Below are positions 1,450 to 62,235 of a stretch of DNA of 64,000 bases, in pieces. The stretch comes from Acidimicrobiaceae bacterium (GTDB taxonomy: Bacteria > Actinomycetota > Acidimicrobiia > Acidimicrobiales > RAAP-2): the NCBI GenBank assembly GCA_027342785.1, contig DAHWPS010000115.1:7052-71051 (forward strand). The letters are read 5' to 3'. Below the pieces are notes generated by a model. It saw only the letters and a list, made by a program, of their open reading frames with translations, was not told where the DNA came from and made no database searches. Numbering within the stretch: position 1 is the stretch's first letter; every line of letters begins with the position of its first letter. The position numbers and the translations under genes were made by a program.

Positions 1450-2250
1450 TCAGGCGAAAAGGGCGCGGTGGATCATCGTCGTCAAGGTGTCGAGCGACTT
1501 CTCGTCCACCGGCTGTCCGACGAACTCCCTCAGGTAGTGGAACCGATCGAGCATGGCCAGCACCGCCATCCCGGCGACATCGGCATCGACGCCTTTCGCA
1601 GCCGGTGCCGAGGTGATCCGCTGGGAGAGGGCACCTGAAATGGTGGCAACCGTGAGGCGGACCTGATCTCCCAGCTCGGGGTCGAGTGACGCCAGATCGG
1701 TCCACGCTCGGAGGAGCGGGGCGTAGCGAACCCACAGAGACGAGTACCGGTCGACCCACTGGCGCAGCTCGTCCCAGTCCGTTCCGCCCGCGGGGGGATC
1801 ACCGAGCACCTGGTAGAGCTCGCTCGCCTCGGCTGCGGCTTCGGCCACCAGCGCTCGGAGCAGGTCCTCTTTGTTCGAGAAGTAGAGGTAGAAGGTCCCA
1901 TGGGAGGTCTTCGCGATCTCCACCACGTCGTTCACCCGGGTGGCGTGGTAGCCGCGGCGGTCGAACGCCTCCATGGCCGCGTCGAGCAGCTTGCGCATCG
2001 TTCGCCGTCCCTGGTGGCGAAGGGCCCGTCTGCTCGCGGGTGCGCCGCCTGGGCTGCCTGTGCCGCCGGCACCACCTCTGCCGGCGATCTCCTCGCGTGC
2101 CGGCGACGTCGGACCCACCCGGGGGTCCGAGAGAGGAACGGGCGGGCGTGACGCAGCCTTCGGCTTGGGCTCCGCACCGACTCGGGAGGGGGCCGAACGC
2201 CCCCGACTGCGTGCTTGCCCCATGGAGTGAGGATCGTAGTGGCTGCTCAT
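1450..2250 (-). CDS. TetR family transcriptional regulator
   Basis: RKLLDAAMEAFDRRGYHATRVNDVVEIAKTSHGTFYLYFSNKEDLL is a textbook TetR N-terminal HTH. The start is uncertain: ATG at 2250 or 2223, with the ORF open to 2364. There is a Pro/Gly/Arg-rich N-terminal extension. Confidence 0.8.
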   Translation of the reverse strand: MSSHYDPHSMGQARSRGRSAPSRVGAEPKPKAASRPPVPLSDPRVGPTSPAREEIAGRGGAGGTGSPGGAPASRRALRHQGRRTMRKLLDAAMEAFDRRGYHATRVNDVVEIAKTSHGTFYLYFSNKEDLLRALVAEAAAEASELYQVLGDPPAGGTDWDELRQWVDRYSSLWVRYAPLLRAWTDLASLDPELGDQVRLTVATISGALSQRITSAPAAKGVDADVAGMAVLAMLDRFHYLREFVGQPVDEKSLDTLTTMIHRALFA

Positions 2251-2256
2251 CCACCC

Positions 2257-2270
2257 TGACGGCCGTGTCA
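2257..2270. promoter_or_regulatory. TGACG-GCCG-TGTCA near-palindrome (one mismatch to the core)
   Basis: Read directly. It lies 7 nt upstream of the TetR candidate start at 2250 and about 190 nt upstream of the CoA-transferase gene. It shares the ACCCTGAC left flank with the 36583 copy. Confidence 0.4.
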
Positions 2271-4388: not shown

Positions 4389-4402
4389 TGACGTGGATGT
4401 CA
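4389..4402. promoter_or_regulatory. TGACG-TGGA-TGTCA near-palindrome
   Basis: Read directly. It lies 76 nt upstream of the binding-protein ATG and abuts a second inverted repeat, AGTGA-N6-TCACT, at 4374-4389. Confidence 0.35.
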
Positions 4403-13685: not shown

Positions 13686-13696
13686 ACGGTCAGGCG

Positions 13697-14715: not shown

Positions 14716-14904
14716 TCATTCGACAGCCGCGGCCACCTCGGGCTGTCGATTGGCGTGCACGTCCTGAGGCAATGGGACGATGCGCGACGTGCCGTTCTGC
14801 GCTCCGGAGACGAGAGCGACGATCGTTGTTCTGGCGCGTCGTTCGTTGCGGTCACTGGCTGGGTAGGAGTCCAATATTGCCAACTTCCGCGTCCGAACTG
14901 TCAC
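14716..14904 (-). CDS. candidate small ORF (62 aa) translationally coupled to HepT
   Basis: Its GTG start overlaps the HepT TGA stop (GTGA). No recognisable domain. This rests on weak ORF evidence only. Confidence 0.2.
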   Translation of the reverse strand: MTVRTRKLAILDSYPASDRNERRARTTIVALVSGAQNGTSRIVPLPQDVHANRQPEVAAAVE

Positions 14905-15742: not shown

Positions 15743-15749
15743 GACCAAA

Positions 15750-15755
15750 ACTATA
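15750..15755 (-). promoter_or_regulatory. candidate -10 box TATAGT for a leaderless mntA-hepT transcript
   Basis: On the minus strand, TATAGT is followed by 7 nt and then ATG (15742). There is no Shine-Dalgarno sequence. The spacing fits actinobacterial leaderless mRNAs. Confidence 0.35.
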
Positions 15756-16266: not shown

Positions 16267-16569
16267 CTTGCGGCACCGTCGAGCCAGGGCATGTGGAACT
16301 TCAGACTTTTATCGGTGCCCCCCACCTGACCTCAGTCTAGGGCAGAAGTGCGCCTGTCGCCCGATCCGTGCCCACGCCACTCGGCTCGCGAACTGCCGGT
16401 TCGTTTCGCACCCTTCTTTCGTGAGCACGGCCTTCTCGGCTGCACCGGGCGCCGCACAAGTCCGGAGCCGCCGCCACATGCCAGCGTGAGGATCGCACGG
16501 CGCCGCAGCGGACGGGGTGGACGGCGCCCGTGGGGAGGAGTGGCGCTGGTCGTACCGGTTTTGGTGTCC

Positions 16570-19748: not shown

Positions 19749-19853
19749 TGTTCCTCCCGCTTGTCACGCGAACGCTCTCGACCGGTCGCCCGCTCGTCGC
19801 AACCCCTTCTCGGAGGTCGAATTGTGGGCCGCTCCGGCGGCCGTTACCGTATC

Positions 19854-19867
19854 TGACATCAGTGTCA
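19854..19867. promoter_or_regulatory. TGACA-TCAG-TGTCA palindrome
   Basis: Read directly. It lies 23 nt upstream of the SDR ATG (19890) and 106 nt upstream of the divergent ADP-forming synthetase start. Confidence 0.55.
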
Positions 19868-24231: not shown

Positions 24232-24245
24232 TGACGCCGGTGTCA
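24232..24245. promoter_or_regulatory. TGACG-CCGG-TGTCA near-palindrome
   Basis: Read directly. It lies about 47 nt upstream of the amidohydrolase start (minus strand) and shares the right flank TGTCACAT with the 2257 copy. Confidence 0.35.
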
Positions 24246-24275
24246 CATACTGTAGGCGGCGCCGAGCGGGTCGCG

Positions 24276-24367: not shown

Positions 24368-24736
24368 TCAGATAACCGGTCCCGGCGCACCCTCGGGCGG
24401 GGATTTGACCGGCCCGGTGTGAGCGGCGACGGCGGCTTGGAACGCCGCGGGGTCTTCCGGCGTGACGAACGGCCGGACCATTGCACCCAGGTCGAAGACG
24501 AACGCCACCGACTTGCGTGGGCGCCCGGGATCGAAGCTGGCCCAGTACCTCGGGTTGGAGGTACCCCAGATCCTCTCCTTGCCCCGGAGGGAGGACATCT
24601 CGACTCGTACGACACCTTTGACCGAGGAGTAGCGGATGCGCTTGGTGCCCCACGGGAAGTAGTAGCCCCGCACCTCGATGCCCTCGGCGGTGCACGTGAT
24701 CCACTTGTCCTCGTACTCCGCTCCCGTTCGGGCCAT
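24368..24736 (-). CDS. small conserved hypothetical protein (PH-domain-like)
   Basis: Only the last 122 codons of the long listed ORF look coding: MARTGAEYEDKWITCTAEGIEVRGYYFPWG.... The upstream part is antisense to the LLM oxidoreductase gene. Confidence 0.55.
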   Translation of the reverse strand: MARTGAEYEDKWITCTAEGIEVRGYYFPWGTKRIRYSSVKGVVRVEMSSLRGKERIWGTSNPRYWASFDPGRPRKSVAFVFDLGAMVRPFVTPEDPAAFQAAVAAHTGPVKSPPEGAPGPVI

Positions 24737-24883
24737 GCCGCGCGCTCCCTTCTCGGGACCGGACCTCGGTTCGCCGGTTTCCCTGATCCTAGAAGCACTG
24801 GTGGCGCGCAGTCCTGGAGAGCTCGAAGGCCGATCGACGGATCGGACGGGCCGACCGCTACGATCGGCACGGTGGCAGTGGAG

Positions 24884-25930
24884 ATGAGCTGGTTCGCAGC
24901 GCTCTGCGACGACGACTACGAGCTCCTCGGCGTGCCCGACCCCGCGCTCCGGTCGAGCTATGAGCACTGCGCGGCCATCGTCCACCAGGCCCAGTCGTCG
25001 GGGTTCGACAACATCCTGCTCCCGTCGGGGTACACGCTCGGGATCGACACGCTGGCGTTTGCCGCGGCCGTGGCCCCCACCCTCGATCGGATTCGCCTCC
25101 TCGTGGCTGTTCGATGCGGCGAGGAGTGGCCACCCAAGCTGGCCCGCCAGCTCGCCACCTTGGATCGGCTGCTCGGGGGGAGGCTCACGATCAACGCGAT
25201 CTCGAGCGACCTGCCCGGGCAGGCAGTCGACTCGGCACCGCGCTATGCCCGGAGCGGCGAGGTGCTCCAGATCGTCCGGGACCTGCTGGACGGCAAGCAT
25301 GTCGACCATCATGGTTCGTGGTACGACGTCGAGGTCGACCCGCCGCGGCTGAGCACCGTGTCGGGACGCTGCCCTCCGGTCTATTTCGGCGGCCTGTCGG
25401 AGCCGGCCCGAGAGCTGGCAGCCGCCGCAGCCGACGTCTACCTCATGTGGCCGGATACCGAAGACGTGGTGGCATCGGTGGTCGCCGATCTCCGCCGCCG
25501 GGCAGCCGCGCTCGGCCGCACCCTGCGCTTCGGCTATCGGGTGCACGTCGTGGTCCGCCGCACCGAGTCCGAGGCGCGAGAGGCGGCCCGCCATCTCGTC
25601 TCGATGCTCGACGACGATACCGGTGCAGCGATCCGGAACCGTTCACTCGACGCCGCATCGGCGGGCGTGGGTCGCCAGGGGGAGCTTCGGGCGGCAGCCG
25701 ATGACGAAGGCTACGTCGAGGAGCACCTGTGGACCGGGATCGGCAGGGGTCGGTCAGGCTGCGGTGCCGCGCTCGTCGGCGATCCCGAGCAGGTGGCCGC
25801 AAAGCTCTCCCGCTATGCCGAACTGGGCATGGATGCGTTCATCCTGTCGGGCTACCCCCACATCGACGAGTGCCGCCGCTTCGGCGAGCTGGTGCTCCCC
25901 CTCATCGACCACGCGCCACTCACCGTGTGA
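24884..25930 (+). CDS. LLM-class (luciferase-like) flavin-dependent oxidoreductase, SsuD-like
   Basis: From ATG 24884 it reads MSWFAALCDDDYELLG...GFDNILLPSGY...YLMWPD...LSGYPHIDE, typical of the luciferase-like monooxygenase TIM barrel. Confidence 0.75.
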   Translation: MSWFAALCDDDYELLGVPDPALRSSYEHCAAIVHQAQSSGFDNILLPSGYTLGIDTLAFAAAVAPTLDRIRLLVAVRCGEEWPPKLARQLATLDRLLGGRLTINAISSDLPGQAVDSAPRYARSGEVLQIVRDLLDGKHVDHHGSWYDVEVDPPRLSTVSGRCPPVYFGGLSEPARELAAAAADVYLMWPDTEDVVASVVADLRRRAAALGRTLRFGYRVHVVVRRTESEAREAARHLVSMLDDDTGAAIRNRSLDAASAGVGRQGELRAAADDEGYVEEHLWTGIGRGRSGCGAALVGDPEQVAAKLSRYAELGMDAFILSGYPHIDECRRFGELVLPLIDHAPLTV

Positions 25931-25949
25931 CCGGACCGATGACCGTGCG

Positions 25950-27044
25950 TCAGCCTGCGAGGACTTCGGACATCTCGACCGCCCTGTGCTCGGCGATGGA
26001 TTGCTGCGCCGCCGCGCCGACGGCCACGCTCAGCAGGCCGTCGGCAAGGCTCACTTGTGCCGGCGTACCGCTGCGTATGGCGCTGAGGAAGTCCAGGTGC
26101 TCCAGATAGCTCGAGCCGTGGTGGAACCCCTCGTGCTGGATCCGGTCGTCGGTCGGCACCTCTTCGGTGACGCCCCATGGCCCGCGGGCCCGCTGACCGG
26201 TCCGCACGATGCCGGACGGGACGAAGGCCTCCACCTTCCCGAGGTCGCCCACGACGCTCAGCTCTTCCTGGTTCCTGCTTGCCTCGGCGAACATGCACAG
26301 GTCGAGCGACGCGCGGGCGCTCCCCTCGTACTCGACGATCACCATGGCGTTGTCGATGATGTCAGGCATCTCGCCTGTGTATCGCTCGTCGAGATGGTTC
26401 ACGTCCTGGGCGCCTGAGGCCATCACCCGGACCGGGTCACGTCCGATCACCAGGTTCATGAGGTCGAAGAAGTGGCAGCACTTCTCCACCAACGTCCCGC
26501 CCGTGTTGCGGTTGAAGCGGTTCCAGTTCCCGACTTTGGGCAGGAACGGGTAACGGTGCTCCCGGATGGCCATCATCCGGAGGTCGCCCACCACACCGTC
26601 TCTCACCCGGTCGATCAGCGCGGCGACCGGAGGGATGTACCTGTACTCGAGCCCGACCCAGGCGACACCCCCGAAGTCTTCGGCGGCGGCGACCACTTTC
26701 TCGCAGTCGGCCACCGTCGTGCACAGCGGCTTCTCCACCAGCACGTGGATGCCGGCAGCCAAGACGTCGAGGAGGACGGCGGCGTGGGTCATGTTCGGGC
26801 TGGCCACCACCACGGCGTCGCAGAGCCCCGACGCCAGGAGCTCACGGTGGTCGGAGAACATCTCAGGCACCGGCCGGCCGGCCATCTCCGCTGTCGAGCG
26901 CGCCGACTGGCGCGAGCCTTCGTCGGGGTCGGCCATCGCCGTCACCTCGACACCGTCGACGGCGCCGAGGTTCCGGAAGTGCTCCAGGCCCATCATGCCG
27001 GTGCCGATGATGCCGTAGCGGATGACGCCTGTGGGAGAGGACAT
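25950..27044 (-). CDS. Gfo/Idh/MocA family oxidoreductase
   Basis: From ATG 27044 it reads MSSPTGVIRYGIIGTGMMGLEH...VLVEKPL. This is the N-terminal Rossmann fold plus the EKP motif. Confidence 0.85.
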   Translation of the reverse strand: MSSPTGVIRYGIIGTGMMGLEHFRNLGAVDGVEVTAMADPDEGSRQSARSTAEMAGRPVPEMFSDHRELLASGLCDAVVVASPNMTHAAVLLDVLAAGIHVLVEKPLCTTVADCEKVVAAAEDFGGVAWVGLEYRYIPPVAALIDRVRDGVVGDLRMMAIREHRYPFLPKVGNWNRFNRNTGGTLVEKCCHFFDLMNLVIGRDPVRVMASGAQDVNHLDERYTGEMPDIIDNAMVIVEYEGSARASLDLCMFAEASRNQEELSVVGDLGKVEAFVPSGIVRTGQRARGPWGVTEEVPTDDRIQHEGFHHGSSYLEHLDFLSAIRSGTPAQVSLADGLLSVAVGAAAQQSIAEHRAVEMSEVLAG

Positions 27045-27190
27045 GGAGCGAGCGTAGTAGTGCGGTGGGTCAATATAGGGACATGAGCCACGTCGACGCG
27101 CCCGGCTCGTCGGCGCGCCAACCCCCCCGAGCAGGCGGTCGACCCCGAGTCGGTAACCGTTCGGACCAGGGTGGCGGCCGGCCAGCCGAT

Positions 27191-28426
27191 GTGGTGGCTG
27201 CAGCCCCTGCATCCCCTACCCAGCGATCGTCGCTGTTGATGTCGCGCTTCAACCCCAGCCGCGAGTTCATGAGCTGGATCTACCAGTTGAACGGGCGTCT
27301 CGACGCGTCCGCCCTCGCCCTCGCCCTCGACGACGTCGTCGCTCGGCACGAAATGCTCCGCGTGCGCTTCCTCGACCGCGGGCAGGGTCCCGAGCAGATC
27401 GTCACGCCGTTCCATCCCGGCGTGCTCGGGGTGGTCCGGCTCGACGACCGGCCGAAGCTCGAAGCGCTCACGACCGCGGTCCGAGCAGTCGAGATCGAGT
27501 ACCAGGACCTCTCACCGTGGGACGACGCGCGCCTCCAGGCCACCCTCTACGTCGTGGCCCCGAAGACCCACGTGCTGTCGGTCTGGGTGGCCGAGGCGGC
27601 GGTGGACGGGGACTCGGGCACGCTGGTCGCGGCCGAGATCTCGCGTGCCTACGCCGCCCATGCGGGACGGCCGGCCCCCGAGCTACCCGTGCCCGACGAG
27701 ACGAGCTACCTGCAATACGTCCTGGACTACCCGGTGACTTTTGCGGCCTTCGAGCGAGCTCGCCAATTCTGGGCAGGCGAGCTGCCGGCCAGAGCTGCTG
27801 CAGGGGAGTGGCCGACGGCGACTGGCGATCGCAGCATCACTCGGTTTTTCAACGTGCCCGGAGCGACATGGGATAGGCTTGTCAGGGCAACTCCAGCCCT
27901 GGCGACGATGCCGTACGTCGTGGTGCTCTCGTGGCTGGAGATCGCGCTGTGCGCGGTGGCCGGCGCCGAGGACTTCGTGGTGACGTCGGCGATGTCGAGC
28001 CGCCGCTTGCCGGTGACCAGGAAGATGATCGGAAATTTCGTCGGGCCGGTCCGACTGCGTGCCGAAGTCCACCCTGGTGAAAAGCTGGAGGACGTCTCAC
28101 CGAGGGTGATGGCTGCCCTTCGGGCCGCGATGACCCACGGCGTGGTGCCCGCCCCGCTCGCGGAGGCCGAGTCCGTCGGCCTCGACCGGTACGTGCCGCC
28201 TCCGCCGACGATCGGGTTCTACCTATTCGCCGAACGAGAAGGTCTCGATCTCGCCGGCGTGCGCCAGCGGCGGTTCCGGGTCCACACGGGCAACCGGGAC
28301 ATCCTCCGGGTGAATTGCACTCCGGACGGCGAAGGCGGGAGGAACTTCTTCTTCCTCTCGGCGTCAGCGTCTCCCGAGCTCCTCGACGCCCTCGTAGGGG
28401 AGCTCCGCTCGCAGATGGGCGTGTGA
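27191..28426 (+). CDS. stand-alone condensation-domain-like protein with degenerate active-site motif
   Basis: The C1/C2-like motifs SREFMSWIYQLNG and VVARHEMLRVRF are present. VAEAAVDGDSG occupies the position of the HHxxxDG motif. The start is uncertain (27065, 27191 or 27194). Confidence 0.55.
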   Translation: MVAAAPASPTQRSSLLMSRFNPSREFMSWIYQLNGRLDASALALALDDVVARHEMLRVRFLDRGQGPEQIVTPFHPGVLGVVRLDDRPKLEALTTAVRAVEIEYQDLSPWDDARLQATLYVVAPKTHVLSVWVAEAAVDGDSGTLVAAEISRAYAAHAGRPAPELPVPDETSYLQYVLDYPVTFAAFERARQFWAGELPARAAAGEWPTATGDRSITRFFNVPGATWDRLVRATPALATMPYVVVLSWLEIALCAVAGAEDFVVTSAMSSRRLPVTRKMIGNFVGPVRLRAEVHPGEKLEDVSPRVMAALRAAMTHGVVPAPLAEAESVGLDRYVPPPPTIGFYLFAEREGLDLAGVRQRRFRVHTGNRDILRVNCTPDGEGGRNFFFLSASASPELLDALVGELRSQMGV

Positions 28427-28501
28427 TCCGGCCTGCAGAGCCTCTCGACCACCCGCGCGACATCGAGCTCGTAACCTGCCCGGGGCGTTGCCGGGACGAG
28501 C

Positions 28502-31078
28502 TCAAGCGCGATCGGACGTCAGCCGGCATTCGATCGATCCAGGTCGGCTCGCCTGGATGACCACGGTGGTCTCGGCGGGCTCTGGCCCCGGGGTGACGAT
28601 CGCCACCGATCCACCTGTCACCGCGATCGACCCCGCCGGTGTGGTCGCAAGTGCGCCGGCGATCGCTCCACGCACGACCAGCTCGACCAGACCGGGCTGG
28701 GTGACGTGAAGAAGGAGCGTGATCGTCCCTCGCCCGTCGTCGAGGTGGCGGCCGATCAGTTCTGCCGTCGCTTGTACGAGGGTCCCGGCGGCACCGAGCG
28801 AGACCTCGACGGGCAGGAGCCGAGCTCCTCGACCCGGCATGGAGATGGAGTCCAGCAGCGCCGGGAGGGTCCGGTGCCCGAGTGCGCTCTGGCTGCGGCC
28901 ATCTCGGCTGCCGTTGGGCTCGCCGGTGCTACCGCTGCCGCTGCGCTCGCCAGCTCCGACGGGGGCGCCGGCAGGTGACGGACAAGGTCTGGTGTAGGTG
29001 GCGCGCGTGGCGGCCGGAGCGTCGACCGGGTTGACGACACAGACCAGCCCACCCGAAGGGCCGGCCATCTCGAACGCCGCGATCTGCGGGTCTGAGGAGG
29101 ACACTGCGCAGGAGGTACCGTCCCATTCGACGATGCGCCGGCACAGCGCCGCAGCTCCGGGTCCTCCATCGGGGTCGTAGCCCAAGCGGAACCCGATGAA
29201 GGTGATCCGGCCTTGCCCGAAGGGCTGAGTGCAGGCGCACGGACGCCCGTCCTCGGCAGAGAACGCCAGTGCTTCGCTGCCAGCTGGAAGGTCGAAGGAG
29301 GTGGCTCGCCCGATGCCGACGATCGTCCGACCGAGCTCGTCACGCACGAGAGCGGTTCCTGACATCCCCCCGGCAAATCCGGCGAACGCAGGCAGCTTGC
29401 CGCCTGGGAAGACAGCTCGAGCGAGCACGTCACAGGGTGCCATCGTGTCGTCACGCGTGGGCAGTGCCGGAAGGAGCACCAAGTGGCCGCCGCCGGCGGC
29501 GTAGTCGACGAGCCGCTGCTGCACCGGGGCAGCCAAGAAGTCCAGGCAACCAACCCAGCATTGGTGTGCTGCTTCGAGTGGGCTCGCCCTGTCGGCGATG
29601 TCGACGAGGTTCCAGCTGATGCTCGAGGTGGCGAGGAGGCTCTGCAGCCCGGCTGACGACGAGAGCCCCATCTCACCTTGGGGGAGCAGGGTCTGGAGCC
29701 CCCACGCGTCGAGGGCCAGAGCAGCTCCCCCCATCGAGGCCGCGTCATAGTCCAGGTGCACCCCGATCGAGACGTCGATGAGCGGGCGCATCTCGTGGAT
29801 CTCCGGCTCCATGGTTCGCATCACGCGGACGATCTTGGCAACGGTGTCGAAGTGAGGGCGGCGTTTGCCCTCGACGGAGATCGGAGCACAGATGTCGTAC
29901 TCCGACCCCGTCTCGTTCTCGAAGCCAGGAGGGTTCTTTCCTCCGACCATCATGTAGAAATTCATCCCGCGCACGCCTCGGATCGCAGTCAGGGCGTAGA
30001 GAAGCTCCATGGCACCAGGTGGGAGATAGCTGGCGTTTGACGACTGGATCTCCATGGCGACCGGTGGACCGTGATCGACGCCGCGCCACAGGTGGTACGC
30101 CTCGTGAGTGGAGATGACCGCCGCGATCTTTTCCTCGGCACCTGCGTACGACCCCATGAGTGAGAGGTAGCACTCGTCGGTCAAGTGGAGGTCGAGGTTC
30201 ATGCGATCTGCGAAAGAGGAGAACTTCTTGGCCTGGAGAGAGCTCAGATAGGGGTACAGCATCATGAGGCGGCCCACCATCCCCGCCCCTCTTGCCGTCT
30301 CGTAGCAGATGGCGACGTACCGGTTGATCTGGTCCAGCTTGAAGTCCAGCCAGTCCAGGTACCGGGCCAGCTCCCGCCCGTCGGACATGGGCTGGCGTGG
30401 GGGTTCGATGTCCTCGGGCCGGGACCATTCCGGGCGATCGTGGGCCGATGCCACTGCACTCATGGACCCGTGGCGTTCCAGGAGGAATTTCGCCCAGGGC
30501 GAGCCGCCTGCGACCGGGCTCACGAGAAGGGGGTGGTAGTCCAAGCTGAAAGGGTCACCCAGGCTCTGCCAGTACGAAGGCTCGTCATCGAGCTGGACGG
30601 CGCTGATGAAACCGCCGTGCTCGCACAAGCGATCGACGATTGCCTCGCAAGCAGTCCGGAGCCATGCCTGAGAGGTTTCGACGAACCTCGGATGGGCATA
30701 GGTGATGAGCGGGTAACCGCCCCCGTCGCTGACCGAGCCGCTGGCGTCGAGGGCTCGAATCGCCGGTTCCGAGTCGAGCAGCCAGTCCGGGATCCCTCCG
30801 TTGCGCCACTCGGCAGTGATGAACGGTCCGGGACGGTAGATGCACTGCAGACCGGCGCTGGCGATGGCGTCGAGCGCCCCGAGGAGATCCCTTTCGGGGA
30901 TGGTACGCCCCGTCAAGTCCAGCGTCGCCGGGTCAGGCTGGTGCCAATTCCACGGCACGTAGATGCAAGCGGTGTCCAATCCCGCGTCGGCCATCTGCGC
31001 CAGACGGTCGGCCCAGGCTGTGCGGGGGACCCGGAAGTAGTGGAACTCACCCGAGAACAGGCATGGCTCTTCGCTCAA
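28502..31078 (-). CDS. glycoside hydrolase family 35-like beta-galactosidase
   Basis: The N-terminus is SGEFHYFRVPRTAWADRL...VPWNWHQP...YRPGPFITAEWRNGGIPDWL, characteristic of GH35. 858 aa with extra C-terminal beta-rich domains. Confidence 0.75.
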   Translation of the reverse strand: MSEEPCLFSGEFHYFRVPRTAWADRLAQMADAGLDTACIYVPWNWHQPDPATLDLTGRTIPERDLLGALDAIASAGLQCIYRPGPFITAEWRNGGIPDWLLDSEPAIRALDASGSVSDGGGYPLITYAHPRFVETSQAWLRTACEAIVDRLCEHGGFISAVQLDDEPSYWQSLGDPFSLDYHPLLVSPVAGGSPWAKFLLERHGSMSAVASAHDRPEWSRPEDIEPPRQPMSDGRELARYLDWLDFKLDQINRYVAICYETARGAGMVGRLMMLYPYLSSLQAKKFSSFADRMNLDLHLTDECYLSLMGSYAGAEEKIAAVISTHEAYHLWRGVDHGPPVAMEIQSSNASYLPPGAMELLYALTAIRGVRGMNFYMMVGGKNPPGFENETGSEYDICAPISVEGKRRPHFDTVAKIVRVMRTMEPEIHEMRPLIDVSIGVHLDYDAASMGGAALALDAWGLQTLLPQGEMGLSSSAGLQSLLATSSISWNLVDIADRASPLEAAHQCWVGCLDFLAAPVQQRLVDYAAGGGHLVLLPALPTRDDTMAPCDVLARAVFPGGKLPAFAGFAGGMSGTALVRDELGRTIVGIGRATSFDLPAGSEALAFSAEDGRPCACTQPFGQGRITFIGFRLGYDPDGGPGAAALCRRIVEWDGTSCAVSSSDPQIAAFEMAGPSGGLVCVVNPVDAPAATRATYTRPCPSPAGAPVGAGERSGSGSTGEPNGSRDGRSQSALGHRTLPALLDSISMPGRGARLLPVEVSLGAAGTLVQATAELIGRHLDDGRGTITLLLHVTQPGLVELVVRGAIAGALATTPAGSIAVTGGSVAIVTPGPEPAETTVVIQASRPGSIECRLTSDRA

Positions 31079-31191
31079 CGCGCCGTCGCCTCTCTGCTGC
31101 GCACCGCCTCGGCCAGTCCGATGTGCATCAGGTCAAGCTAATCGATGGCCCGTCCTCCAAGCATGCCGAGGTCGGCCGTGTGGTTGCGTGG

Positions 31192-32094
31192 TTATGCGTC
31201 GCGTCGCACGAGCAGCCAACCGCCGAGGACGAGGACGACGACGGCGTACCCGCAGAGAATGGCAAAGCCGACCCACGGGCCGAACGTTGGCGCCTGAGCG
31301 GCTCGTAGGCCCACGTGGACCGTCATCATCCTTACCCCGATGACAGCGGGGAGGTACTTGGCGACCGCGTCGCTGATCGACGACGGGAGCGCCTCGACGA
31401 CGAGCGGAAGGATGAAGAGCACGCCAACGAACGTGCTGATCGCCCCGGCAGTGTGCCGGACGATCGTCGCGATGCCGAGGGCCAGCAGTCCGAGCACCGC
31501 AAGGTAGAGACCGCCTCCGGCGACTGCTCGCAGTACTCCGGCCTGGCTGAGGACGGCGTGTGGGGCGGATCCAGCGAGGATTGCCTGACCGATGAAGAAG
31601 GCGGCGAACGCAAGGACCTCGCTCACGACCAGTGCGACGACCGCGTACACCGCAGTCTTGGCGAGGAGCACGAGGAGCCGGTTGGGGACGGCTGCCAAGG
31701 TGGCGCGGATCGTGCCACTGCCGTACTCGGCGGTCATCACAAGGATGCCGAGGACGCCGATGGCCAGTTGACCGAGGAGAAGGCCGGTCAGACTGAGGCT
31801 CGTCGGGTCGAACGTCAGGTGCTGGAGCAAGGTCTCGTGCGACCAGCGGTCCGCTTCGGTCGCGGTGGCCAGGATGCCGATGCCGATCACGAGGATCGCG
31901 GTGACCACCAGGCTCCAGGTGGTGGATCTCACGCTCCGGAGCTTCGTCCACTCCGACTTGAGGACGCCCGAGAGGCGGTAGTGGCCCGGACGCTCTCCGT
32001 GCGCGGACGGAGTTGGATCTGAGCCGCTGCTTGCTTCGCCAACCCGTGGCTGGAGCTCATCGCCACCGGATCTCGAGTTCTCAGTGATGCTCAT
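31192..32094 (-). CDS. ABC-2 type transporter permease
   Basis: From ATG 32094, which forms an ATGA overlap with the ATPase stop. After a hydrophilic leader it has about 6 TM segments starting LKSEWTKLRSVRSTTWSLVVTAILVIG. Confidence 0.75.
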   Translation of the reverse strand: MSITENSRSGGDELQPRVGEASSGSDPTPSAHGERPGHYRLSGVLKSEWTKLRSVRSTTWSLVVTAILVIGIGILATATEADRWSHETLLQHLTFDPTSLSLTGLLLGQLAIGVLGILVMTAEYGSGTIRATLAAVPNRLLVLLAKTAVYAVVALVVSEVLAFAAFFIGQAILAGSAPHAVLSQAGVLRAVAGGGLYLAVLGLLALGIATIVRHTAGAISTFVGVLFILPLVVEALPSSISDAVAKYLPAVIGVRMMTVHVGLRAAQAPTFGPWVGFAILCGYAVVVLVLGGWLLVRRDA

Positions 32095-33065
32095 GGTCCC
32101 GTGAGCTCCAGCGGAGCCGTAGGATCGTGGTCGGGTCGGTCGTTGCGAGGAGCGGCTTCCATCCCCATCCCGTGGAACTCCACGCTTGTCCCCGTCAGCT
32201 CCATGAACACTTCTTCGAGGGATGCGCTGCGAGGCGTGAGCTCGTGCAAGACGATGCCCCCGGCGGCGGCGAGCTCTCCGATGACGTCGGCCGGCAGCCC
32301 GGTGACCCGAAGCGCGCCGTCCGCGTCGGTCACGGCCTGACCCCCGGCATCGTGGATCCTCTGGACCAGTTCGCCGGTGTTCGGCGTCCGCACCAGCACG
32401 TTGTGGTTGGAGCCGCGCGAGGTGAGATCGGTGATCGGCATATCGGCGATCAGGCGACCTCGCCCGATGACGACGAGGTGGTCGGCCGTGAGTGCCATCT
32501 CGCTCATGAGGTGGCTTGACACGAGGACCGTTCGGCCCTCGGCAGCGAGATGCCGGAGAAGGTTGCGCACCCACCGGATCCCCTCGGGGTCGAGGCCATT
32601 GACCGGTTCGTCGAACAGCAGCACACCGGGGTCACCGAGCAGAGCGGCGGCGATCCCCAAACGCTGGCCCATGCCGAGCGAGTACGTACCGGCCCGCTTG
32701 CGGCCAACGGTGGCGAGGCCGACAAGATCGATGACCTCGTCGATCCGCCGGCGGGGAATGTCATTGGTCTGAGCCAGGGAAAGGAGGTGGTTGAAGGCGC
32801 TCCGGCCGGGGTGGATGGCTTTCGCCTCGAGCAGCGCGCCGACCTCTCGGAGGGGCCAGGCCAGCTCGCGGTACGGCCGACCTCGGATCGTTGCCCAACC
32901 GGCGTCCGGGTTGTCGAGCCCCATGATCATCCGCATGGTGGTCGACTTGCCCGAGCCGTTCGGGCCGAGAAACCCGGTCACCTTGCCGGCGACGACCTCG
33001 AACGTCAAGTGGTCGACGGCCAGGGTCGGACCGTATCGCTTGACGAGACCGTTCAGCTCGATCAT
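32091..33065 (-). CDS. ABC transporter ATP-binding protein (ABC-2/DrrA-like exporter)
   Basis: Walker A GPNGSGKST, signature YSLGMGQRL and Walker B LLFDEPVNGLD are present. 324 aa with a C-terminal regulatory extension. Confidence 0.9.
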   Translation of the reverse strand: MIELNGLVKRYGPTLAVDHLTFEVVAGKVTGFLGPNGSGKSTTMRMIMGLDNPDAGWATIRGRPYRELAWPLREVGALLEAKAIHPGRSAFNHLLSLAQTNDIPRRRIDEVIDLVGLATVGRKRAGTYSLGMGQRLGIAAALLGDPGVLLFDEPVNGLDPEGIRWVRNLLRHLAAEGRTVLVSSHLMSEMALTADHLVVIGRGRLIADMPITDLTSRGSNHNVLVRTPNTGELVQRIHDAGGQAVTDADGALRVTGLPADVIGELAAAGGIVLHELTPRSASLEEVFMELTGTSVEFHGMGMEAAPRNDRPDHDPTAPLELTGP

Positions 33066-33298
33066 CGACCGCCCCTGCTCCTCGTTGTAGTGCCGCCCCT
33101 GCTCCGAGGCGTTCCCGGCCCCTCAGACGCGCCCTGGTGCGGCATGCGTCAGGTGGCTCTGCGGCGGACCGATCGGCGGAACGCTGCGTGTTTCAGCTTG
33201 CACCAGACCGTACCGCCTCGGCGAGATCGGACGGGCGCGTGAACCTGAGACCTTGGCAAGGACCGTGCAGGCGCGTACTCCCGAGCAGTAGAAAGGGC

Positions 33299-35321: not shown

Positions 35322-36554
35322 TCAGGAGGTACGGGACTGGCCGGGGAGCTTGATGGCCCGATCGGCGATGATGTTCTTCTGTACCTCGGTCGAGCCACCG
35401 CCGATCGTGCTGTAGCGCTGAAAGGCGTACAGGCGCGTCCACTTGCCTCGGTCGACCGAGTCGGGGCCTCCTCGAGCCAGGACCCCGGCTGGCCCGAGCA
35501 GATCGACTGCCAGCTCAGCCAGCTCTTGCGCCAGTGAAGACCACTGGAGCTTGGCGAACTGGACTTCGGGCCACGGGCGTTCTCCCTTGATGATCCGGCT
35601 GAGTGCCCGCAGTGAGAGGAGACGCGCCAACTCGATCTCGGTCCAGGCCCGAGCAAGACGATCGGCGATGACCGGGTCAGCGAGCGCGTCGGGGTTCGTC
35701 GATCGGGCTGCTTCGACCATTGCCCGTAGGTCAGCTCCGAGGATGGAGATCTGACCTGCGATGCCGACGCGCTCGAAACCGAGAGTGCCCATGGCGACCA
35801 TCCAGCCTTCGCCTTCACCACCCAAGCGGCACTCGACCGGTATGCGGGCGTTGGTGAAGTACACCTCGTTGAACATCTCTTCGCCGGCCATGTCCCGGAT
35901 GGGGCGGCATTCGATCCCCGGCGTCTCCATGTCGATGATGAACGCGGTGATCCCTTCGTGCTTTGCGCCGCGCTCGATGGCCGTCGGGTCGGTGCGGAGC
36001 AGGAAAAGCCCCCACTTGGCCAAGTGGGCGGTCGAGATCCAGATCTTCTGACCGTTCACGACGTAGTGGTCGCCGTCTCGGATCGCCATCGTCCGCAGGT
36101 TTGCCAAGTCATTGCCGGCGTCGGGCTCGGAAAATCCCTGGCACCAGTGCTCTCGGGCTTCAAGAATGCTCGGGAGCCACCGGGCTTTCTGCTCGTCGGT
36201 ACCCCAGGTGATGATCATCGGCCCGATCTGCCAGATGCCGTTGGTGTTGAACATCCCCGGAGTGCGGTATTCGGCCATCACCTCCGAGGAGATGATGCGC
36301 TGCATTGCAGTGGCGGCGCGGCCTCCGTGCTCGACCGGCCAGTGGATGGCGGCCCAACGCCCCGAGTGCAGCTCACGCTGCCACGCGGCGCGGCGCCGCT
36401 GTGACGCCTCCCCCGAGAGCTTGCCGCCTTCGTCTCCGGCATCGCCCGAGGCGCCTGCTGTCTCCTTCTCCAAGAATGGGGGCAGGTGCTCGTCCAACCA
36501 GGCGCGCAACTCGTCGCGAAAGGCTTCGTCCTCTGGTGACAGCGCAAAGTCCAC
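35322..36554 (-). CDS. acyl-CoA dehydrogenase (alpha-type)
   Basis: It has WCQGFSEPDAGNDLANLRT...NGQKIWISTAH...GGGSTEVQKNIIA. The start is taken at the GTG of VDFALSPEDE (36554); GTG 36563 is an alternative. Confidence 0.85.
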   Translation of the reverse strand: MDFALSPEDEAFRDELRAWLDEHLPPFLEKETAGASGDAGDEGGKLSGEASQRRRAAWQRELHSGRWAAIHWPVEHGGRAATAMQRIISSEVMAEYRTPGMFNTNGIWQIGPMIITWGTDEQKARWLPSILEAREHWCQGFSEPDAGNDLANLRTMAIRDGDHYVVNGQKIWISTAHLAKWGLFLLRTDPTAIERGAKHEGITAFIIDMETPGIECRPIRDMAGEEMFNEVYFTNARIPVECRLGGEGEGWMVAMGTLGFERVGIAGQISILGADLRAMVEAARSTNPDALADPVIADRLARAWTEIELARLLSLRALSRIIKGERPWPEVQFAKLQWSSLAQELAELAVDLLGPAGVLARGGPDSVDRGKWTRLYAFQRYSTIGGGSTEVQKNIIADRAIKLPGQSRTS

Positions 36555-36582
36555 GGCGGCCACGGTAGCCCAAATGTCGTGT

Positions 36583-36604
36583 ACCCTGACACTGCTGTCA
36601 GGGT
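36583..36604. promoter_or_regulatory. perfect 9-4-9 palindrome ACCCTGACA-CTGC-TGTCAGGGT (core TGACA-N4-TGTCA)
   Basis: Read directly from the sequence. It lies about 30 nt upstream of the minus-strand ACAD start, in the 250-nt divergent ACAD/ACAD intergenic region. Confidence 0.6.
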
Positions 36605-36807
36605 CATCGGACGAGCATGGCCGGGGAGCGCCGCGAGGTGCGTGACCGACGACAGGGCGCAACAGGGTGCAACAGGGTGCTCGCCCAGACGGTGGGGAGA
36701 GCGCTCATTCGGAGTCAGTCGGATTCCGAGCGAACGGCGTGCCGGCGCTGATCGTTGGTCGCCGACCGAGATCGGGCGCGAGACGGGGACAGGAGAGACG
36801 AGAGAAA

Positions 36808-41961: not shown

Positions 41962-43323
41962 TCAAGAGTCGACGATCCGGGTCGCTTTGTAGCCGGCCCG
42001 GGGGATGGTGTCGCGATCGAGGAGCTCGGCGTCCACGACCACGCCGAGCGCCGCCTTGACGTCGGCAGCGAGGCGCTCGGCAGCCCGGCGTCGCAGGTCT
42101 GCATCCTCCGATGCCACTTCTACGCGCACTTTGAGCGGGGTGTCGCTGCCGTCGGGCTGGACCACCTGGTACTCGAGTGAAGGGCGGCTCAGCTCTTCGA
42201 TGCCGCGCAGCACCGACTCGAGCTCGTTGAGCTGGAACCGGGTGCCCTGACAGGTGAGCAGATCCTTGAACCTCCCGCCCCACAGGCCGCGGATGGAGGT
42301 CTCCCCGCACGGGCACGGCTCGCGCAGGATGGCACAGGCCTCCTCGAGGTCGTAGCGCAGCAGGCCGTTGTCCCGATCCAGGGTGGTCACGGTGAGGTTG
42401 CCCCACTCGCCGTCGGGGACTTCGCGCCCGGTGGCCGGGTCGACGGCCTGGACCACGGCCCAGTCCTCGTGAATGTGGGCGCCCGGCGACTGCCCGCACG
42501 GGCCGCCGACGTATGCGTAGCACTCGGCTCCCGCCGTCATGAGAGGCATGCCGCCACGACCCATCCCGAAGCCCGGTGGCGCTTTGAGGCCCGTGAGGCC
42601 TGCGTCTTCGAGAGGGATGCCCAACTTGTTGGCGACCTCGAGGAAGCGCCCGGTGGCGAAGCCCATGAAAGGGATGTCCGGGGTCACCCGCGTCCAGAAG
42701 CGGACGGCCTGCTCGGCCAGCTCGTCGGTGTCGGGCGGCGGCACCCACAGGCTCAGCAGCCCGAGGTACTCGTAGGTTCCCTGGAGCATCTGTCCGCCTC
42801 CGTAGAGGTAGGCCGGATGCGCGTGGGTCACGATCATCCCGGGGCGGTAGCCCATCCGCCACCAGTTGCGGGCGCCTGACTCGTACTCGACCCAGAGGTC
42901 CTTGCGGGTCCAGATCGTGATGGTCGGCTGCCCGGTGGTCCCGGTCGACGTCCCGAGACGCACGCCGTCTCGGGGATCGGTGAAGCGGTACGTACCCCAC
43001 GGCGGTGCAGCGGCCTCCGAGTCCCGGAGGTCCTGCTTCACAGTGAGGGGGATCCTCCAGAGATCGTCGACGCCGCTCACGTCCTCGGGACTGTGAACGC
43101 CGGCTGCGGCGAGCTTGTCCTTGAACAGGGGCACCGGCGTCTCGATGACCCGGGTGACGAGATCCCTCACTCGCTGGTCTTGGAGATGGCGCCGCCGTTC
43201 CGGGTCCATCGCCTGCTTGTCGGGGTCCCAGAGCGCCTGGCCCGGATCGCGGGGGATCGGTCCGAGCATGCCGGGGGCGAACGGGGGAGTCGAGACCGAG
43301 TCGGGACCTGACATGGCTGTCAT
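41962..43323 (-). CDS. phenylacetate-CoA ligase (PaaK)-like / F390-synthetase family adenylating enzyme
   Basis: 453 aa with a PaaK-like layout: GTSTGTTGQPT P-loop-like motif and C-terminal ...GYKATRIVD. Two in-frame ATGs (43323 and 43314) sit inside a palindrome. Confidence 0.7.
   Translation of the reverse strand: MTAMSGPDSVSTPPFAPGMLGPIPRDPGQALWDPDKQAMDPERRRHLQDQRVRDLVTRVIETPVPLFKDKLAAAGVHSPEDVSGVDDLWRIPLTVKQDLRDSEAAAPPWGTYRFTDPRDGVRLGTSTGTTGQPTITIWTRKDLWVEYESGARNWWRMGYRPGMIVTHAHPAYLYGGGQMLQGTYEYLGLLSLWVPPPDTDELAEQAVRFWTRVTPDIPFMGFATGRFLEVANKLGIPLEDAGLTGLKAPPGFGMGRGGMPLMTAGAECYAYVGGPCGQSPGAHIHEDWAVVQAVDPATGREVPDGEWGNLTVTTLDRDNGLLRYDLEEACAILREPCPCGETSIRGLWGGRFKDLLTCQGTRFQLNELESVLRGIEELSRPSLEYQVVQPDGSDTPLKVRVEVASEDADLRRRAAERLAADVKAALGVVVDAELLDRDTIPRAGYKATRIVDS
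43309..43322. promoter_or_regulatory. TGACA-TGGC-TGTCA palindrome overlapping a start codon
   Basis: Read directly. It covers codons 1-5 (ATGACAGCCATGTCA) of the PaaK-like ligase gene, 16 nt after the SRPBCC stop. Confidence 0.5.
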
Positions 43324-51387: not shown

Positions 51388-51906
51388 ATGGTGCCCGACG
51401 TGACGCCCGGGCAACGCGGCCGACGCGACGGCGATCCCGACACCACCCAGGCGGCCGCCGCGGCCGGCCTCCCGAGCGGCGGGGACGACCCGGCCGACGT
51501 TGGCGCGAGGACAGGCGGGGCAGCGGACCCCGATGTCTGGCCCTTTCCCTCGGAGCGCTACCTCCACGAGTGGGCGCCCGCCGTCCAGCAGGCGCAGAAC
51601 GCGTGGATGTCGGCCATCGACTCGCTGCGGGCGCCGGACCGCAAGACCCACGAGCTGATTCGGATGGTGTGCACGGTGATCTTGCGCCAGGCCGGGGGGA
51701 TCGAGCGCCACGCCATGCTGGCAGCCGAGGTCGGAGCCACCTGGGACGAGATCGCCGGATCGATCCTGCTCACCGAGCCGGCATTCGGGATCCTCCTTGC
51801 GGTCGAAGCGCTCCCGGCGGCCCGGCGGGGATTCAAGCGAGGCGCCGCACTGGCACGCACCGACGACACAGCCGAGGGCGCCGGCGGCTCAGTCCGCCCG
51901 ACCTGA
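51388..51906 (+). CDS. carboxymuconolactone decarboxylase (CMD/AhpD-like) family protein
   Basis: The core KTHELIRMVCTVILRQAGGIERHAMLAAEVGATWDEIAG resembles the CMD fold. The start is uncertain; ATG 51388 was chosen. Confidence 0.6.
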   Translation: MVPDVTPGQRGRRDGDPDTTQAAAAAGLPSGGDDPADVGARTGGAADPDVWPFPSERYLHEWAPAVQQAQNAWMSAIDSLRAPDRKTHELIRMVCTVILRQAGGIERHAMLAAEVGATWDEIAGSILLTEPAFGILLAVEALPAARRGFKRGAALARTDDTAEGAGGSVRPT

Positions 51907-51917
51907 CAGACGTGTCA
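51904..51917. promoter_or_regulatory. TGACA-GACG-TGTCA palindrome
   Basis: Read directly. Its first TGA is the CMD stop codon, and the site ends 11 nt before the ACAD ATG at 51928. Confidence 0.5.
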
Positions 51918-51927
51918 TAGTTTCCCC

Positions 51928-53184
51928 ATGCGTCTCGCGCCCGACGAGCACCTCAGCGAATTCCGCCGCGAGTTCGAGCACTGGCTCGATCGGCACATGC
52001 CTTCTCCTGACGTGATGACCGAGGCCCGTCGCTCCTCGGCCCACCTCCCGGACTGGGCACGGGCCTGGCAGCGCGACCTGTTCGAGAACGGTTGGCTGGT
52101 GCCGGGTTGGCCACCGGAGCTGGGAGGCCGCAACGCCACTCCCGAAGAGCAGATGACGTACTTCGAAGTGGTGGCCGAGCGGCAGGTCCCGCGTGCGCTG
52201 AACCCGCAGGGACTGTCGATCTGCGCCGCATCGATCATCGATTTCGGCACCGAAGAGCAACGGGAGCGGTTCGCCATCCCGACCTTGCGCGGCGAGGTCA
52301 CGTGGTGTGTGGGCATGAGCGAGCCTGACGCGGGGAGCGACTTGGCGTCGCTGTCGACCAGGGCCGAGCGCCGTGGCGATCGATTCGTGGTGAACGGGCA
52401 GAAGGTCTGGACGTCAGGTGCCCACGAGGCAGACCTGTGCATGTGCTACGTCCGCACGGATCCCGACGCCCCGAAGCACCGCGGCATCAGCATCCTCATC
52501 GTGGACATGCGCACCCCGGGGATCGAGTGCCGCCCGCTGCCCGAGCTCACCGATCCCCGCCACGCAGATTTCAACGAAGTGTTCTTCACCGACGTCGAAG
52601 TCCCCGCGGAGAACCTGGTCGGCGAGCTGCATGGCGGGTGGGCGCTGGCCCAGGGCTCGCTCCGCCACGAGCGGGCGATGCTGTGGATCATGAACGTGGC
52701 CACGTTCGACCGGGCGGTCGAAGGACTGCTCCGCATGGCAGGACGTGACGGAGGAGACGGACGCCTTGTGGGGGAGGACCCGCGGTTCGCCGACGCGCTG
52801 GCCGAGCTCGCCATGGATGCCCGGGCGATGCGGTGCCTGGGCTATCGCGGGTTCGCCAAGGCCCGCCGCGGCGAGATGCCTCCCGAGCACGTGATCCTGA
52901 AGCTGTTCACGAGCGAGGCCGAGCGGCGAGCCACGCTCCTGGGCTTCGAAGCGCTCGGCGCCGGTGGTCTGGACTTGGACGGGCCGGGCCCGAACCGGCG
53001 TACCGACTTCGACTTGGATCGCTACGGCCCGGCGCCGGTGGACGTGGCGCTCACCGCGCCGTTCGCCGACGGTCCCTGGGCCGCGCAGTACCTCCGGTCG
53101 TTCGCCGGGACCATCGCCGGGGGGACCTCGGAGATCCAGCGCAACATCATCGCCGAGCGGGTACTGGGAATGCCGAGGTCGTGA
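51928..53184 (+). CDS. acyl-CoA dehydrogenase (alpha-type)
   Basis: It has WCVGMSEPDAGSDLASLSTRA, NGQKVWTSGAH and IAGGTSEIQRNIIAERVLG. 418 aa. Confidence 0.9.
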   Translation: MRLAPDEHLSEFRREFEHWLDRHMPSPDVMTEARRSSAHLPDWARAWQRDLFENGWLVPGWPPELGGRNATPEEQMTYFEVVAERQVPRALNPQGLSICAASIIDFGTEEQRERFAIPTLRGEVTWCVGMSEPDAGSDLASLSTRAERRGDRFVVNGQKVWTSGAHEADLCMCYVRTDPDAPKHRGISILIVDMRTPGIECRPLPELTDPRHADFNEVFFTDVEVPAENLVGELHGGWALAQGSLRHERAMLWIMNVATFDRAVEGLLRMAGRDGGDGRLVGEDPRFADALAELAMDARAMRCLGYRGFAKARRGEMPPEHVILKLFTSEAERRATLLGFEALGAGGLDLDGPGPNRRTDFDLDRYGPAPVDVALTAPFADGPWAAQYLRSFAGTIAGGTSEIQRNIIAERVLGMPRS

Positions 53185-62221: not shown

Positions 62222-62235
62222 TGACACGGATGTCA
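62222..62235. promoter_or_regulatory. TGACA-CGGA-TGTCA palindrome
   Basis: Read directly. It lies in the short divergent region between the ACAD starts at 62186 (minus) and about 62260 (plus). Confidence 0.55.

Follow-up and report, generated by a model that had tools for sequence, protein, structure and literature searches.

TetR-family proteins are usually ligand-released repressors. KstR and KstR2 of Mycobacterium and Rhodococcus are TetR-family repressors of steroid and lipid catabolism, with the operators TnnAACnnGTTnnA (KstR) and AnCAAGnnCTTGnT (KstR2), and the TetR-type FadR proteins form a set of acyl-CoA-released repressors of beta-oxidation genes. RutR of Escherichia coli, whose box is TTGACCAnnTGGTCAA, controls pyrimidine use. 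Acidimicrobiales abound in soils and peat and have almost no cultured members; to our knowledge, nothing is known about the regulation of carbon use in this lineage.

The FadR protein of Sulfolobus acidocaldarius (6el2) is a TetR repressor of a 30-kb, 23-gene lipase/beta-oxidation cluster and acts via four semi-palindromic sites, one of which lies at its own gene (PMC6449355). SbtR of Thermus thermophilus, another TetR-family protein, binds TGACYRNNYRGTCA with nanomolar affinity (PMC4948773). SimR of Streptomyces antibioticus is a TetR-family protein whose flexible N-terminal extension contacts the minor groove (PMC3241653).

Here we analyzed a recurrent palindrome in the window, by which we mean the whole 64-kb stretch of Acidimicrobiales DNA under study. 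A preliminary description of this DNA had listed five copies of TGACA-N4-TGTCA (19854, 36587, 43309, 51904 and 62222) and three copies of TGACG-N4-TGTCA (2257, 4389 and 24232), and all eight were found where it had placed them. The palindromes (listed without strand) and the TetR-family gene discussed together with them are as follows:

1450..2223, minus strand: TetR-family regulator, 257 aa (PF00440, E 3.1e-16; score 59 bits, cut-off 24)
2257..2270: site 1, TGACGGCCGTGTCA, in the divergent intergenic region between the TetR and CoA-transferase genes
4389..4402: site 2, TGACGTGGATGTCA, 75 nt upstream of the ATG (4478) of a Liv-type solute-binding protein gene
19854..19867: site 3, TGACATCAGTGTCA, between the genes for an ADP-forming acyl-CoA synthetase (GTG 19748, minus strand) and an SDR (ATG 19890, plus strand)
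24232..24245: site 4, TGACGCCGGTGTCA, 46 nt upstream of the ATG (24185, minus strand) of an amidohydrolase_2 gene
36583..36604 (core 36587-36600): site 5, ACCCTGACACTGCTGTCAGGGT, in the divergent region between a large-subunit and a small-subunit ACAD gene
43309..43322: site 6, TGACATGGCTGTCA, at the junction of an SRPBCC gene (stop 43340) and a PaaK-like ligase gene, overlapping the PaaK-like ATG 43323
51904..51917: site 7, TGACAGACGTGTCA, abutting a -10-like TAGTTT (51918-51923), 10 nt before the ATG (51928) of a large-subunit ACAD gene
62222..62235: site 8, TGACACGGATGTCA, between divergent ACAD genes (ATG 62186, minus strand; GTG 62260, plus strand)

The pattern TGACANNNNTGTCA (TGACA-N4-TGTCA) accounts for five of these matches, where dinucleotide-preserving shuffles predict 0.01, and none of 100 shuffles contained five or more copies. 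The relaxed pattern TGACRNNNNYGTCA, which adds the sites at 2257, 4389 and 24232, gives 8 matches in the window against 0.35 expected from shuffles. The earlier estimate of 0.01-0.02 chance occurrences per 64 kb, made under an assumed G+C of roughly two-thirds, proved correct because the measured G+C of the window is 0.66-0.71. An A to G change at position 5 is the sole variation among the eight sites, and permitting one mismatch to the perfect pattern recovered no site in the window beyond these eight; with two mismatches to the 10-base pattern there were 16 matches (8 extra) against 16.06 expected in the window, which is the chance level. The looser TGAC-N6-GTCA has 9 window matches (0.99 expected), the ninth of which (63609) falls within an ORF and is probably a chance match. 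The only extra intergenic match to the 8-base TGAC...GTCA core at one mismatch, at 58493, lies between convergent gene ends. The form of the core in the window is TGACR-N4-TGTCA, the general core is TGAC-N6-GTCA, and the wider consensus reads aaCCTGACR-N4-YGTCAGGtt, with ccgg at its centre (aaCCTGACR-ccgg-YGTCAGGtt). The longest copy, site 5, had been read correctly as a 9-4-9 palindrome, ACCCTGACA-CTGC-TGTCAGGGT, at 36583-36604.

To place the sites relative to genes, a crude stop-to-stop ORF mask was initially available; because this mask over-calls coding sequence (two of the eight window sites were flagged as deep coding where ORFs run too far upstream), start codons in the window were set by hand from conserved N-termini and homolog alignments. 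With these refined starts, 12.9% of the window is intergenic, and seven of the eight sites fall within that share. The remaining one, at 43309, extends over the start of the PaaK-like gene and overlaps its first five codons. None of the eight is more than 105 nt from a start codon. The repeated palindrome is confirmed as genuine, is well above chance and avoids coding sequence.

Pfam scans of the approximately 50 ORFs describe the window as a dense acyl-CoA-catabolic cluster. It encodes SDRs, a family-I CoA-transferase, a Liv-type ABC importer, thiolases, SCP-x/Ltp-like thiolases, enoyl-CoA hydratases, an ADP-forming acyl-CoA synthetase, two amidohydrolase_2 proteins, four AMP-ligases (one PaaK-like), a P450, an aldehyde dehydrogenase, a family-III CoA-transferase and seven ACADs; a Pfam-poor stretch at 13-16 kb holds an HTH_3-nucleotidyltransferase gene. 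For six of the seven ACADs the best NCBIfam models are large-subunit PimC-like or small-subunit PimD/IpdE2-like, all below curated cut-offs, and one of these six is a fusion of the large- and small-subunit types. The seventh (61008-62186), which stood outside the NCBIfam comparison, received its large-subunit label from homologs on other contigs. The neighbours of the motif had been said to include three ACADs; three sites do flank ACAD genes, but the genes number five, arranged as large/small-subunit pairs. The ACAD gene at site 7 (ATG 51928) is the first of an ACAD-ALDH-ligase-thiolase gene row. Genes for steroid ring degradation (Rieske oxygenase, KstD-type, Hsa-type) were absent from the approximately 50 window ORFs by Pfam.

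Promoter hexamers were predicted by consensus match, and each placement below is relative to such a putative -10. Between site 1 and the TetR ATG (2223) stands a -10-like TACGAT (2233-2238, minus strand), 18 nt from the site and 9 nt from the ATG; the site itself is 33 nt upstream of this ATG and 193 nt upstream of the CoA-transferase ATG (2463). Site 5 is followed after 19 nt by a -10-like TACCGT (36562-36567, minus strand) and, 7 nt further on, by the GTG (36554) of the large-subunit ACAD gene, with the divergent small-subunit ACAD gene starting at 36805, approximately 205 nt from the site. Site 8 is 10 nt upstream of a -10-like TAGACT (62246-62251), itself 8 nt before GTG 62260. Three sites lie downstream of a -10-like hexamer: site 2 by 12 nt (TACAGT, 4371-4376), site 3 by 3 nt on the plus strand (TACCGT, 19845-19850, with a minus-strand TACGGT overlapping the same spot), and site 4 by 3 nt (TACAGT, 24249-24254, minus strand).

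This proximity to -10-like hexamers, together with the resemblance of TGACA to the -35 hexamer TTGACA, would also suit palindromes that are themselves promoter elements, for example a -35-like TTGACA in promoters set back to back or a sequence recognised by an alternative sigma factor. The distances argue otherwise. In the direction of the gene, TGACA is separated from the -10 by approximately 28 nt at sites 1 and 5, by 19 nt at site 8 and by approximately 9 nt at site 7, where 16-18 nt would be needed, and sites 2, 3 (plus direction) and 4 are downstream of the -10; moreover, a strict dyad with a fixed centre of 4-6 nt is typical of a dimeric binding protein. Because the spacing between site and -10 is inconsistent, the -35 reading was rejected, and we regard a promoter element of either kind as very unlikely.

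The TetR-family gene nearest to site 1 had been placed at 1450-2250; its actual bounds are 1450-2223, and the start at ATG 2223 (MGQARS) is kept in alignments of homologs. A predicted TetR_N HTH domain follows a disordered N-terminal tail of approximately 70 aa that is rich in K/R/A/P, and is followed by a helical ligand domain. The HTH, RKLLDAAM.AFD.RGYHATRVNDVVEIAKTSHGTFYLYF, is nearly invariant across orthologs and the helical domain is conserved; the tail is not. The protein is 100% identical to one from an Actinomycetota (Acidimicrobiales-like) MAG, on a contig of 71,745 bp (GCA_021791615.1, JAJYWG010000254.1). Homologs number 2497 at E ≤ 1e-10 and are nearly all metagenomic, the named ones being Acidimicrobiales MAGs. 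Against NCBIfam equivalogs (KstR, RutR, MftR, FasR, AcrR and Bacillus FadR) the window protein scored far below every cut-off, and among PDB sequences its best matches were B. subtilis FadR/YsiA (1vi0 and 3whb; E 1e-9, identity approximately 20%). An AlphaFold model with helices at 72-265 (mean pLDDT 67.7; core 75-94, tail below 50) predicts an all-helical C-terminal ligand/dimerisation domain. Among its structural neighbours are EthR, FasR (which binds acyl-CoA) and the FadR proteins from Bacillus, Thermus and Sulfolobus; as fold matches these are generic, the top PDB entries all being TetR-family proteins (E ~1e-4, TM ~0.65, target-normalised).

The conservation of the motif beside this gene was assessed by scanning one genome per GTDB species, which gave TetR relatives in 383 species, from which 80 loci were fetched. 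Of these 80 species-level orthologous loci, 79 have TGAC-N6-GTCA directly upstream of the TetR gene, for the most part as AACC-TGACCACCGTGTCA-GGTTAG. Together with site 1, these 79 loci place a putative palindromic operator in the TetR gene's own, divergent promoter region. The adjoining non-coding block is so conserved that tblastn matches of the TetR protein run beyond the start codon into it. Over proteins that are 54-76% identical, HTH and operator core are both nearly invariant. In the 80 loci, 193 TGAC-N6-GTCA sites were counted in 1.53 Mb (approximately 14 expected), and just 23-30% of sites in related loci are deep within ORFs, which make up 70-78% of bases. Sites recur at two more conserved positions, the first separating a ureidoglycolate-lyase-like gene from a cupin plus 2-hydroxyacid-dehydrogenase pair (kept in approximately 65 of 80 loci, and degenerate in this genome, beyond the left end of the window) and the second preceding a Zn-dependent alcohol dehydrogenase gene.

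Target genes were followed on independent contigs: the site 5 large-subunit ACAD, used as a query against metagenomes, yielded 80 contigs at 63-89% identity, 76 of them with enough upstream sequence. A strict site was present at most 150 nt upstream in 27 of these 76 orthologous loci, with the geometry seen at site 5; other loci carry one-mismatch variants (for example TGACACGGATGTTA), and many orthologs at 77-82% identity are without a site. A search for the TetR gene over the 80 ACAD-anchored contigs returned one distant copy (L156, 59% identity), with no strict site beside it. Genes flanking every site on these contigs were then matched to the window proteome. The site was found upstream of thiolase orthologs on 11 contigs, divergent from an ETF gene, and upstream of P450 orthologs on 5 contigs. 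At site 4, it stands before amidohydrolase orthologs of 64-87% identity on 10 metagenome contigs, with an identical copy in L078; at site 8, between orthologous ACAD pairs on 3 contigs (L121, L147 and L156); at site 3, upstream of orthologs of the ADP-forming synthetase on 2 contigs (L140 and L146) and of an SDR homolog (L100). The one PaaK-like ligase ortholog with a site (L099, 80% identical) has the same conserved N-terminus and, as at site 6, a site overlapping the start codon. The site 2 junction retains its site in the closer relatives L001 (3765) and L078 (7835). The preliminary description had named conservation in orthologous intergenic regions as a point on which its reading could fail, and the motif is kept at orthologs of both the TetR gene and the target genes.

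The orthologs also define the predicted promoter arrangement. In 59 of 75 ACAD orthologs the start codon is preceded at 6-9 nt by a TANNNT hexamer, a distance that indicates leaderless transcripts, and many promoters at the sites look leaderless by this sequence criterion. The spacing of site to -10 in the ACAD orthologs falls into two classes; at 18-22 nt the site would cover the -35 region, and at -8 to +4 nt it would abut or overlap the -10. The window sites agree with this geometry, sites 1 and 5 being 18-19 nt from the -10 and site 7 abutting it. In 256 of 536 oriented contexts, a TANNNT hexamer ends on the first T of TGAC. On the divergent CoA-transferase/Liv side of the TetR-upstream site, approximately 76 of the 79 loci have such a flank, TAACC|T, a -10-like hexamer sharing the first T of the site, and on the other side 28-29 nt separate the site from the -10-like TAC(C/G)A(T/C) of the ortholog TetR gene itself, whose ATG follows after another 9 nt (the window spacing from site to -10 is 18 nt).

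A further alternative is the RNA hairpin that the preliminary description had mentioned; near transcript 5' ends, such a hairpin could be, for example, an attenuator, a processing site or a stability element. In favour of this, site 5 can form a 9-bp stem of -13.8 kcal/mol (z = -4.0), and sites 2 and 4 are probably within 5' leaders. The stems of the other seven sites reach only -3.0 to -6.1 kcal/mol (z +0.5 to -1.7), no better than shuffles, and several sites are upstream of the -10 of putatively leaderless genes and would not be transcribed. Among 259 distinct sites, positions 5 and 10 form Watson-Crick pairs in 16% and wobble pairs in 14%; because these positions seldom pair and TGAC/GTCA never varies, there are no compensatory changes. 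Rfam found no match in the window. With no stable stem common to all copies, a structured RNA element was rejected, and the hairpin alternative fell with it; we consider it extremely improbable.

We consider it likely that the eight palindromes are operators of one transcription factor, with a dimer of the TetR-family protein (1450-2223) as the most likely candidate, serving an acyl-CoA-catabolic regulon. The shared-operator reading proposed earlier gains support from the motif at 79 of 80 TetR orthologs, from its presence at target-gene orthologs and from its overlap with -10-like hexamers. The TetR protein is the most likely predicted binder on grounds of co-localisation and conservation; binder, repression, promoter positions and ligand are each what we infer from these patterns.

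A true operator might instead be bound by a different factor encoded elsewhere, a TetR paralog or a protein of another family, with the local TetR gene as one member of the regulon. The TetR-upstream site is equally upstream of the divergent CoA-transferase operon, and its conservation would also arise if that operon were controlled by another factor; in most orthologs the TetR-upstream site overlaps the -10 of the divergent operon, not that of the TetR gene. In L098 and L099, moreover, a second, unrelated TetR gene beside the P450 gene, with a different recognition helix, shares its intergenic region with the site. Nevertheless, the site is tied to the TetR gene of the window in 79 of 80 genomes, and both HTH and operator core are nearly invariant across orthologs of 54-76% identity. 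Pfam found no other classical regulator in the window besides the HTH_3-nucleotidyltransferase gene, none was found on the rest of the 71.7-kb contig, and the 14-bp TGAC...GTCA palindrome is a documented operator frame of the TetR family (PMC4948773). Taken together, a different factor appears unlikely.

With the TetR protein as the binder, it would control its own gene and the divergent CoA-transferase/Liv-importer/thiolase row, as well as eight to nine further acyl-CoA-catabolic transcription units (about ten operons in all), whose products would include heteromeric ACADs, enoyl-CoA hydratases, thiolase-like proteins, CoA ligases, an SDR, an amidohydrolase and the ADP-forming synthetase. Control of the TetR gene itself is less certain than control of the neighbouring operon, because the ortholog site overlaps the -10 of the divergent operon and is 28 nt from that of the TetR gene. 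A bound dimer would occlude RNA polymerase or its start site; since the operators are on or beside -10-like TANNNT hexamers and many promoters are apparently leaderless, a bound repressor would be expected to block the polymerase. At sites 1, 3, 5 and 8, a single operator may serve both divergent directions. Release would come from a pathway intermediate, most plausibly an acyl-CoA in view of the target genes and the FadR/FasR-like structural neighbours. Because model confidence is moderate and the fold matches are generic, the model points to an acyl-CoA ligand weakly, and this is probably the weakest step of the argument.

A broader version, which we offer tentatively, would make the system a lineage-wide master switch of lipid/acyl-CoA catabolism in which one 14-bp operator gates two divergent promoters. 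In this unusually compact layout, TAACC-TGAC...GTCA-GGTTA, the operator would be nested between two -10 hexamers that face outward and each have one base in common with it; the divergent promoters, overlapping and often leaderless, would then both be under the control of one dimer. Additional non-specific contacts with DNA may come from the long, histone-like K/A/P-rich tail.

The candidate regulon is testable as it stands, with one regulator gene, an operator of 14-22 bp, about ten operons on the contig and predicted targets across hundreds of MAG species. The conserved targets include heteromeric ACADs, amidohydrolases, a thiolase/ETF pair, a P450, CoA ligases and a Liv-type importer. The motif could serve to mark out lipid-catabolic gene sets in MAGs, to find co-regulated genes of unknown function and to guide the search for inducing substrates.

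The motif string was searched in a literature library in six notations, which returned only papers on plant WHIRLY, GraSR and Cop, and no bacterial lipid regulon. Mce3R was considered as a known match and ruled out because it binds a non-palindromic sequence (PMC11667970). RutR was compared by NCBIfam models, with scores (TIGR03613, 28 bits against a cut-off of 368; NF011584, 22 bits against 230) that exclude membership, and its regulon is unrelated; its box has the same operator frame, however, and the ortholog site TGACCACCGTGTCA has the TGACCA half-site in common with it. SbtR was compared by its operator, which has the same 14-bp frame and the same outer TGAC...GTCA tetranucleotides as the window motif; position 5 is a pyrimidine for SbtR and a purine at the window sites. 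SimR is a TetR repressor that likewise has an extra flexible, basic N-terminal extension before the HTH, whereas the tail of the window protein is much longer (approximately 70 aa) and K/A/P/R-rich, and SimR controls an efflux pump.

The TetR-type FadR examples compared were B. subtilis YsiA/FadR (1vi0, 3whb), B. halodurans FadR (PMC5397183) and those of Thermus (3ang) and Sulfolobus (6el2). These give the best PDB sequence matches (E 1e-9) and are among the structural neighbours of the window protein, but identity is approximately 20%, the operator sequence differs, and the window protein has its long basic N-terminal tail; the Bacillus FadR equivalog (NF053878) scored 42.7 bits against a cut-off of 200, with only the HTH stretch matching. 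In layout, the closest described analogue appears to be Sulfolobus FadR (PMC6449355).

With KstR and KstR2, the window has in common a TetR repressor, here a putative one, inside a large actinobacterial cluster of ACAD, hydratase, thiolase-like, CoA ligase and P450 genes, one short palindrome recurring in many promoters of the cluster and often between divergent genes, and heteromeric ACADs as in steroid clusters (best NCBIfam models PimC, PimD and IpdE2, below cut-off). The differences are as clear. The preliminary description had set the motif apart from the KstR box, and this is borne out, the window operator being TGAC-N6-GTCA rather than TnnAACnnGTTnnA or AnCAAGnnCTTGnT; the window protein scored 24.2 bits against the cut-off of 280 for the NCBIfam KstR model (NF033703); the window has no steroid ring-opening genes; and the lineage is Acidimicrobiales, not Mycobacteriales. 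Membership in the KstR/KstR2 regulons was rejected on the operator, the equivalog score and the absence from the window of steroid ring-degradation genes (kshA, kstD, hsaA-D). What we describe is a probable switch of a known kind, previously undescribed for uncultured soil Acidimicrobiales, and no new regulatory principle. Judged from its sequences, the system would work like KstR and the TetR-type FadR proteins and yet belong to neither family, as the likely Acidimicrobiales counterpart of both.

At several genes in the window, the start codon lacks a Shine-Dalgarno sequence and has a TANNNT hexamer just 4-9 nt ahead of it, an arrangement which, judged from the sequence, suggests that these genes are transcribed as leaderless mRNAs. 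The same proximity of TANNNT to the start was found in 59 of 75 ACAD orthologs. The stretches in the window that run from hexamer to start are as follows:
36552-36567, TANNNT to start
62246-62262, TANNNT to start
51918-51930, TANNNT to start
2221-2238, TANNNT to start

Three tandem 10-nt units of the form CRACAGGGYG (cgacagggcg caacagggtg caacagggtg) occupy positions 36650-36679. This array is intergenic, with the divergent ACAD genes on either side, and lies about 50 nt from site 5 (the palindrome at 36583-36604, with a TGAC-N6-GTCA core); it may serve as a second binding site or belong to the small-subunit ACAD gene's 5' leader. In the TetR-ortholog loci L002-L080, another block, CCCTGGTCC-N6-7-CTCATTTT, is conserved on the side of the TetR-proximal site that faces the CoA-transferase gene, at a distance of 20-45 nt; it would fall inside a putative 5' leader of about 170 nt of the CoA-transferase/Liv operon. 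No obvious copy of the block is seen in the window.

Beyond the left end of the window, the same contig (L161) holds a further intergenic region of interest for the palindrome:
L161 12360-12395, region between the ureidoglycolate-lyase-like and cupin genes, sequence CTAGTCTGGACGACGAGCAGTCTAG
Both -10-like hexamers are retained here, but this genome has only a degenerate form of the TGAC-N6-GTCA core, which is found at this position in about 65 of the 80 loci with orthologs. On two metagenome contigs with ACAD orthologs, a second, unrelated TetR gene is divergent from a P450 ortholog (L098, near 2414; L099, near 2910). A TGAC-N6-GTCA site sits between the two genes, and the encoded protein (205-264 aa) has a different recognition helix; the arrangement could reflect a regulatory cascade, or the protein could be another reader of the same box.

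Two stretches without sites, 13000-16300 and 25900-33100, break up the row of acyl-CoA genes and may be insertions. Pfam matches in the first were absent except for those of a single HTH_3-nucleotidyltransferase gene (15233-15748). Among the products of the second are a GFO/IDH/MocA oxidoreductase, a condensation-domain protein, a GH35/42 glycosidase and an ABC-2 exporter. Immediately upstream of site 4 (24232-24245) lies a small ORF:
24368-24720, minus strand, small ORF, MARTGAEYEDKWITCTAEGIEVRGYYFPWGTK...
It had no Pfam match, and the longer ORF at 24368-25594 looks spurious save for this C-terminal part.

The proposed repressor itself carries a long, basic extension:
2014-2223, minus strand, TetR N-terminal tail of about 70 aa, rich in K, R, A and P
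The tail is predicted to be disordered in the structure model (pLDDT below 50); in the homolog alignment it is found in all orthologs, and its sequence is not conserved. This basic tail recalls the minor-groove-binding N-terminal extension described for SimR (PMC3241653).
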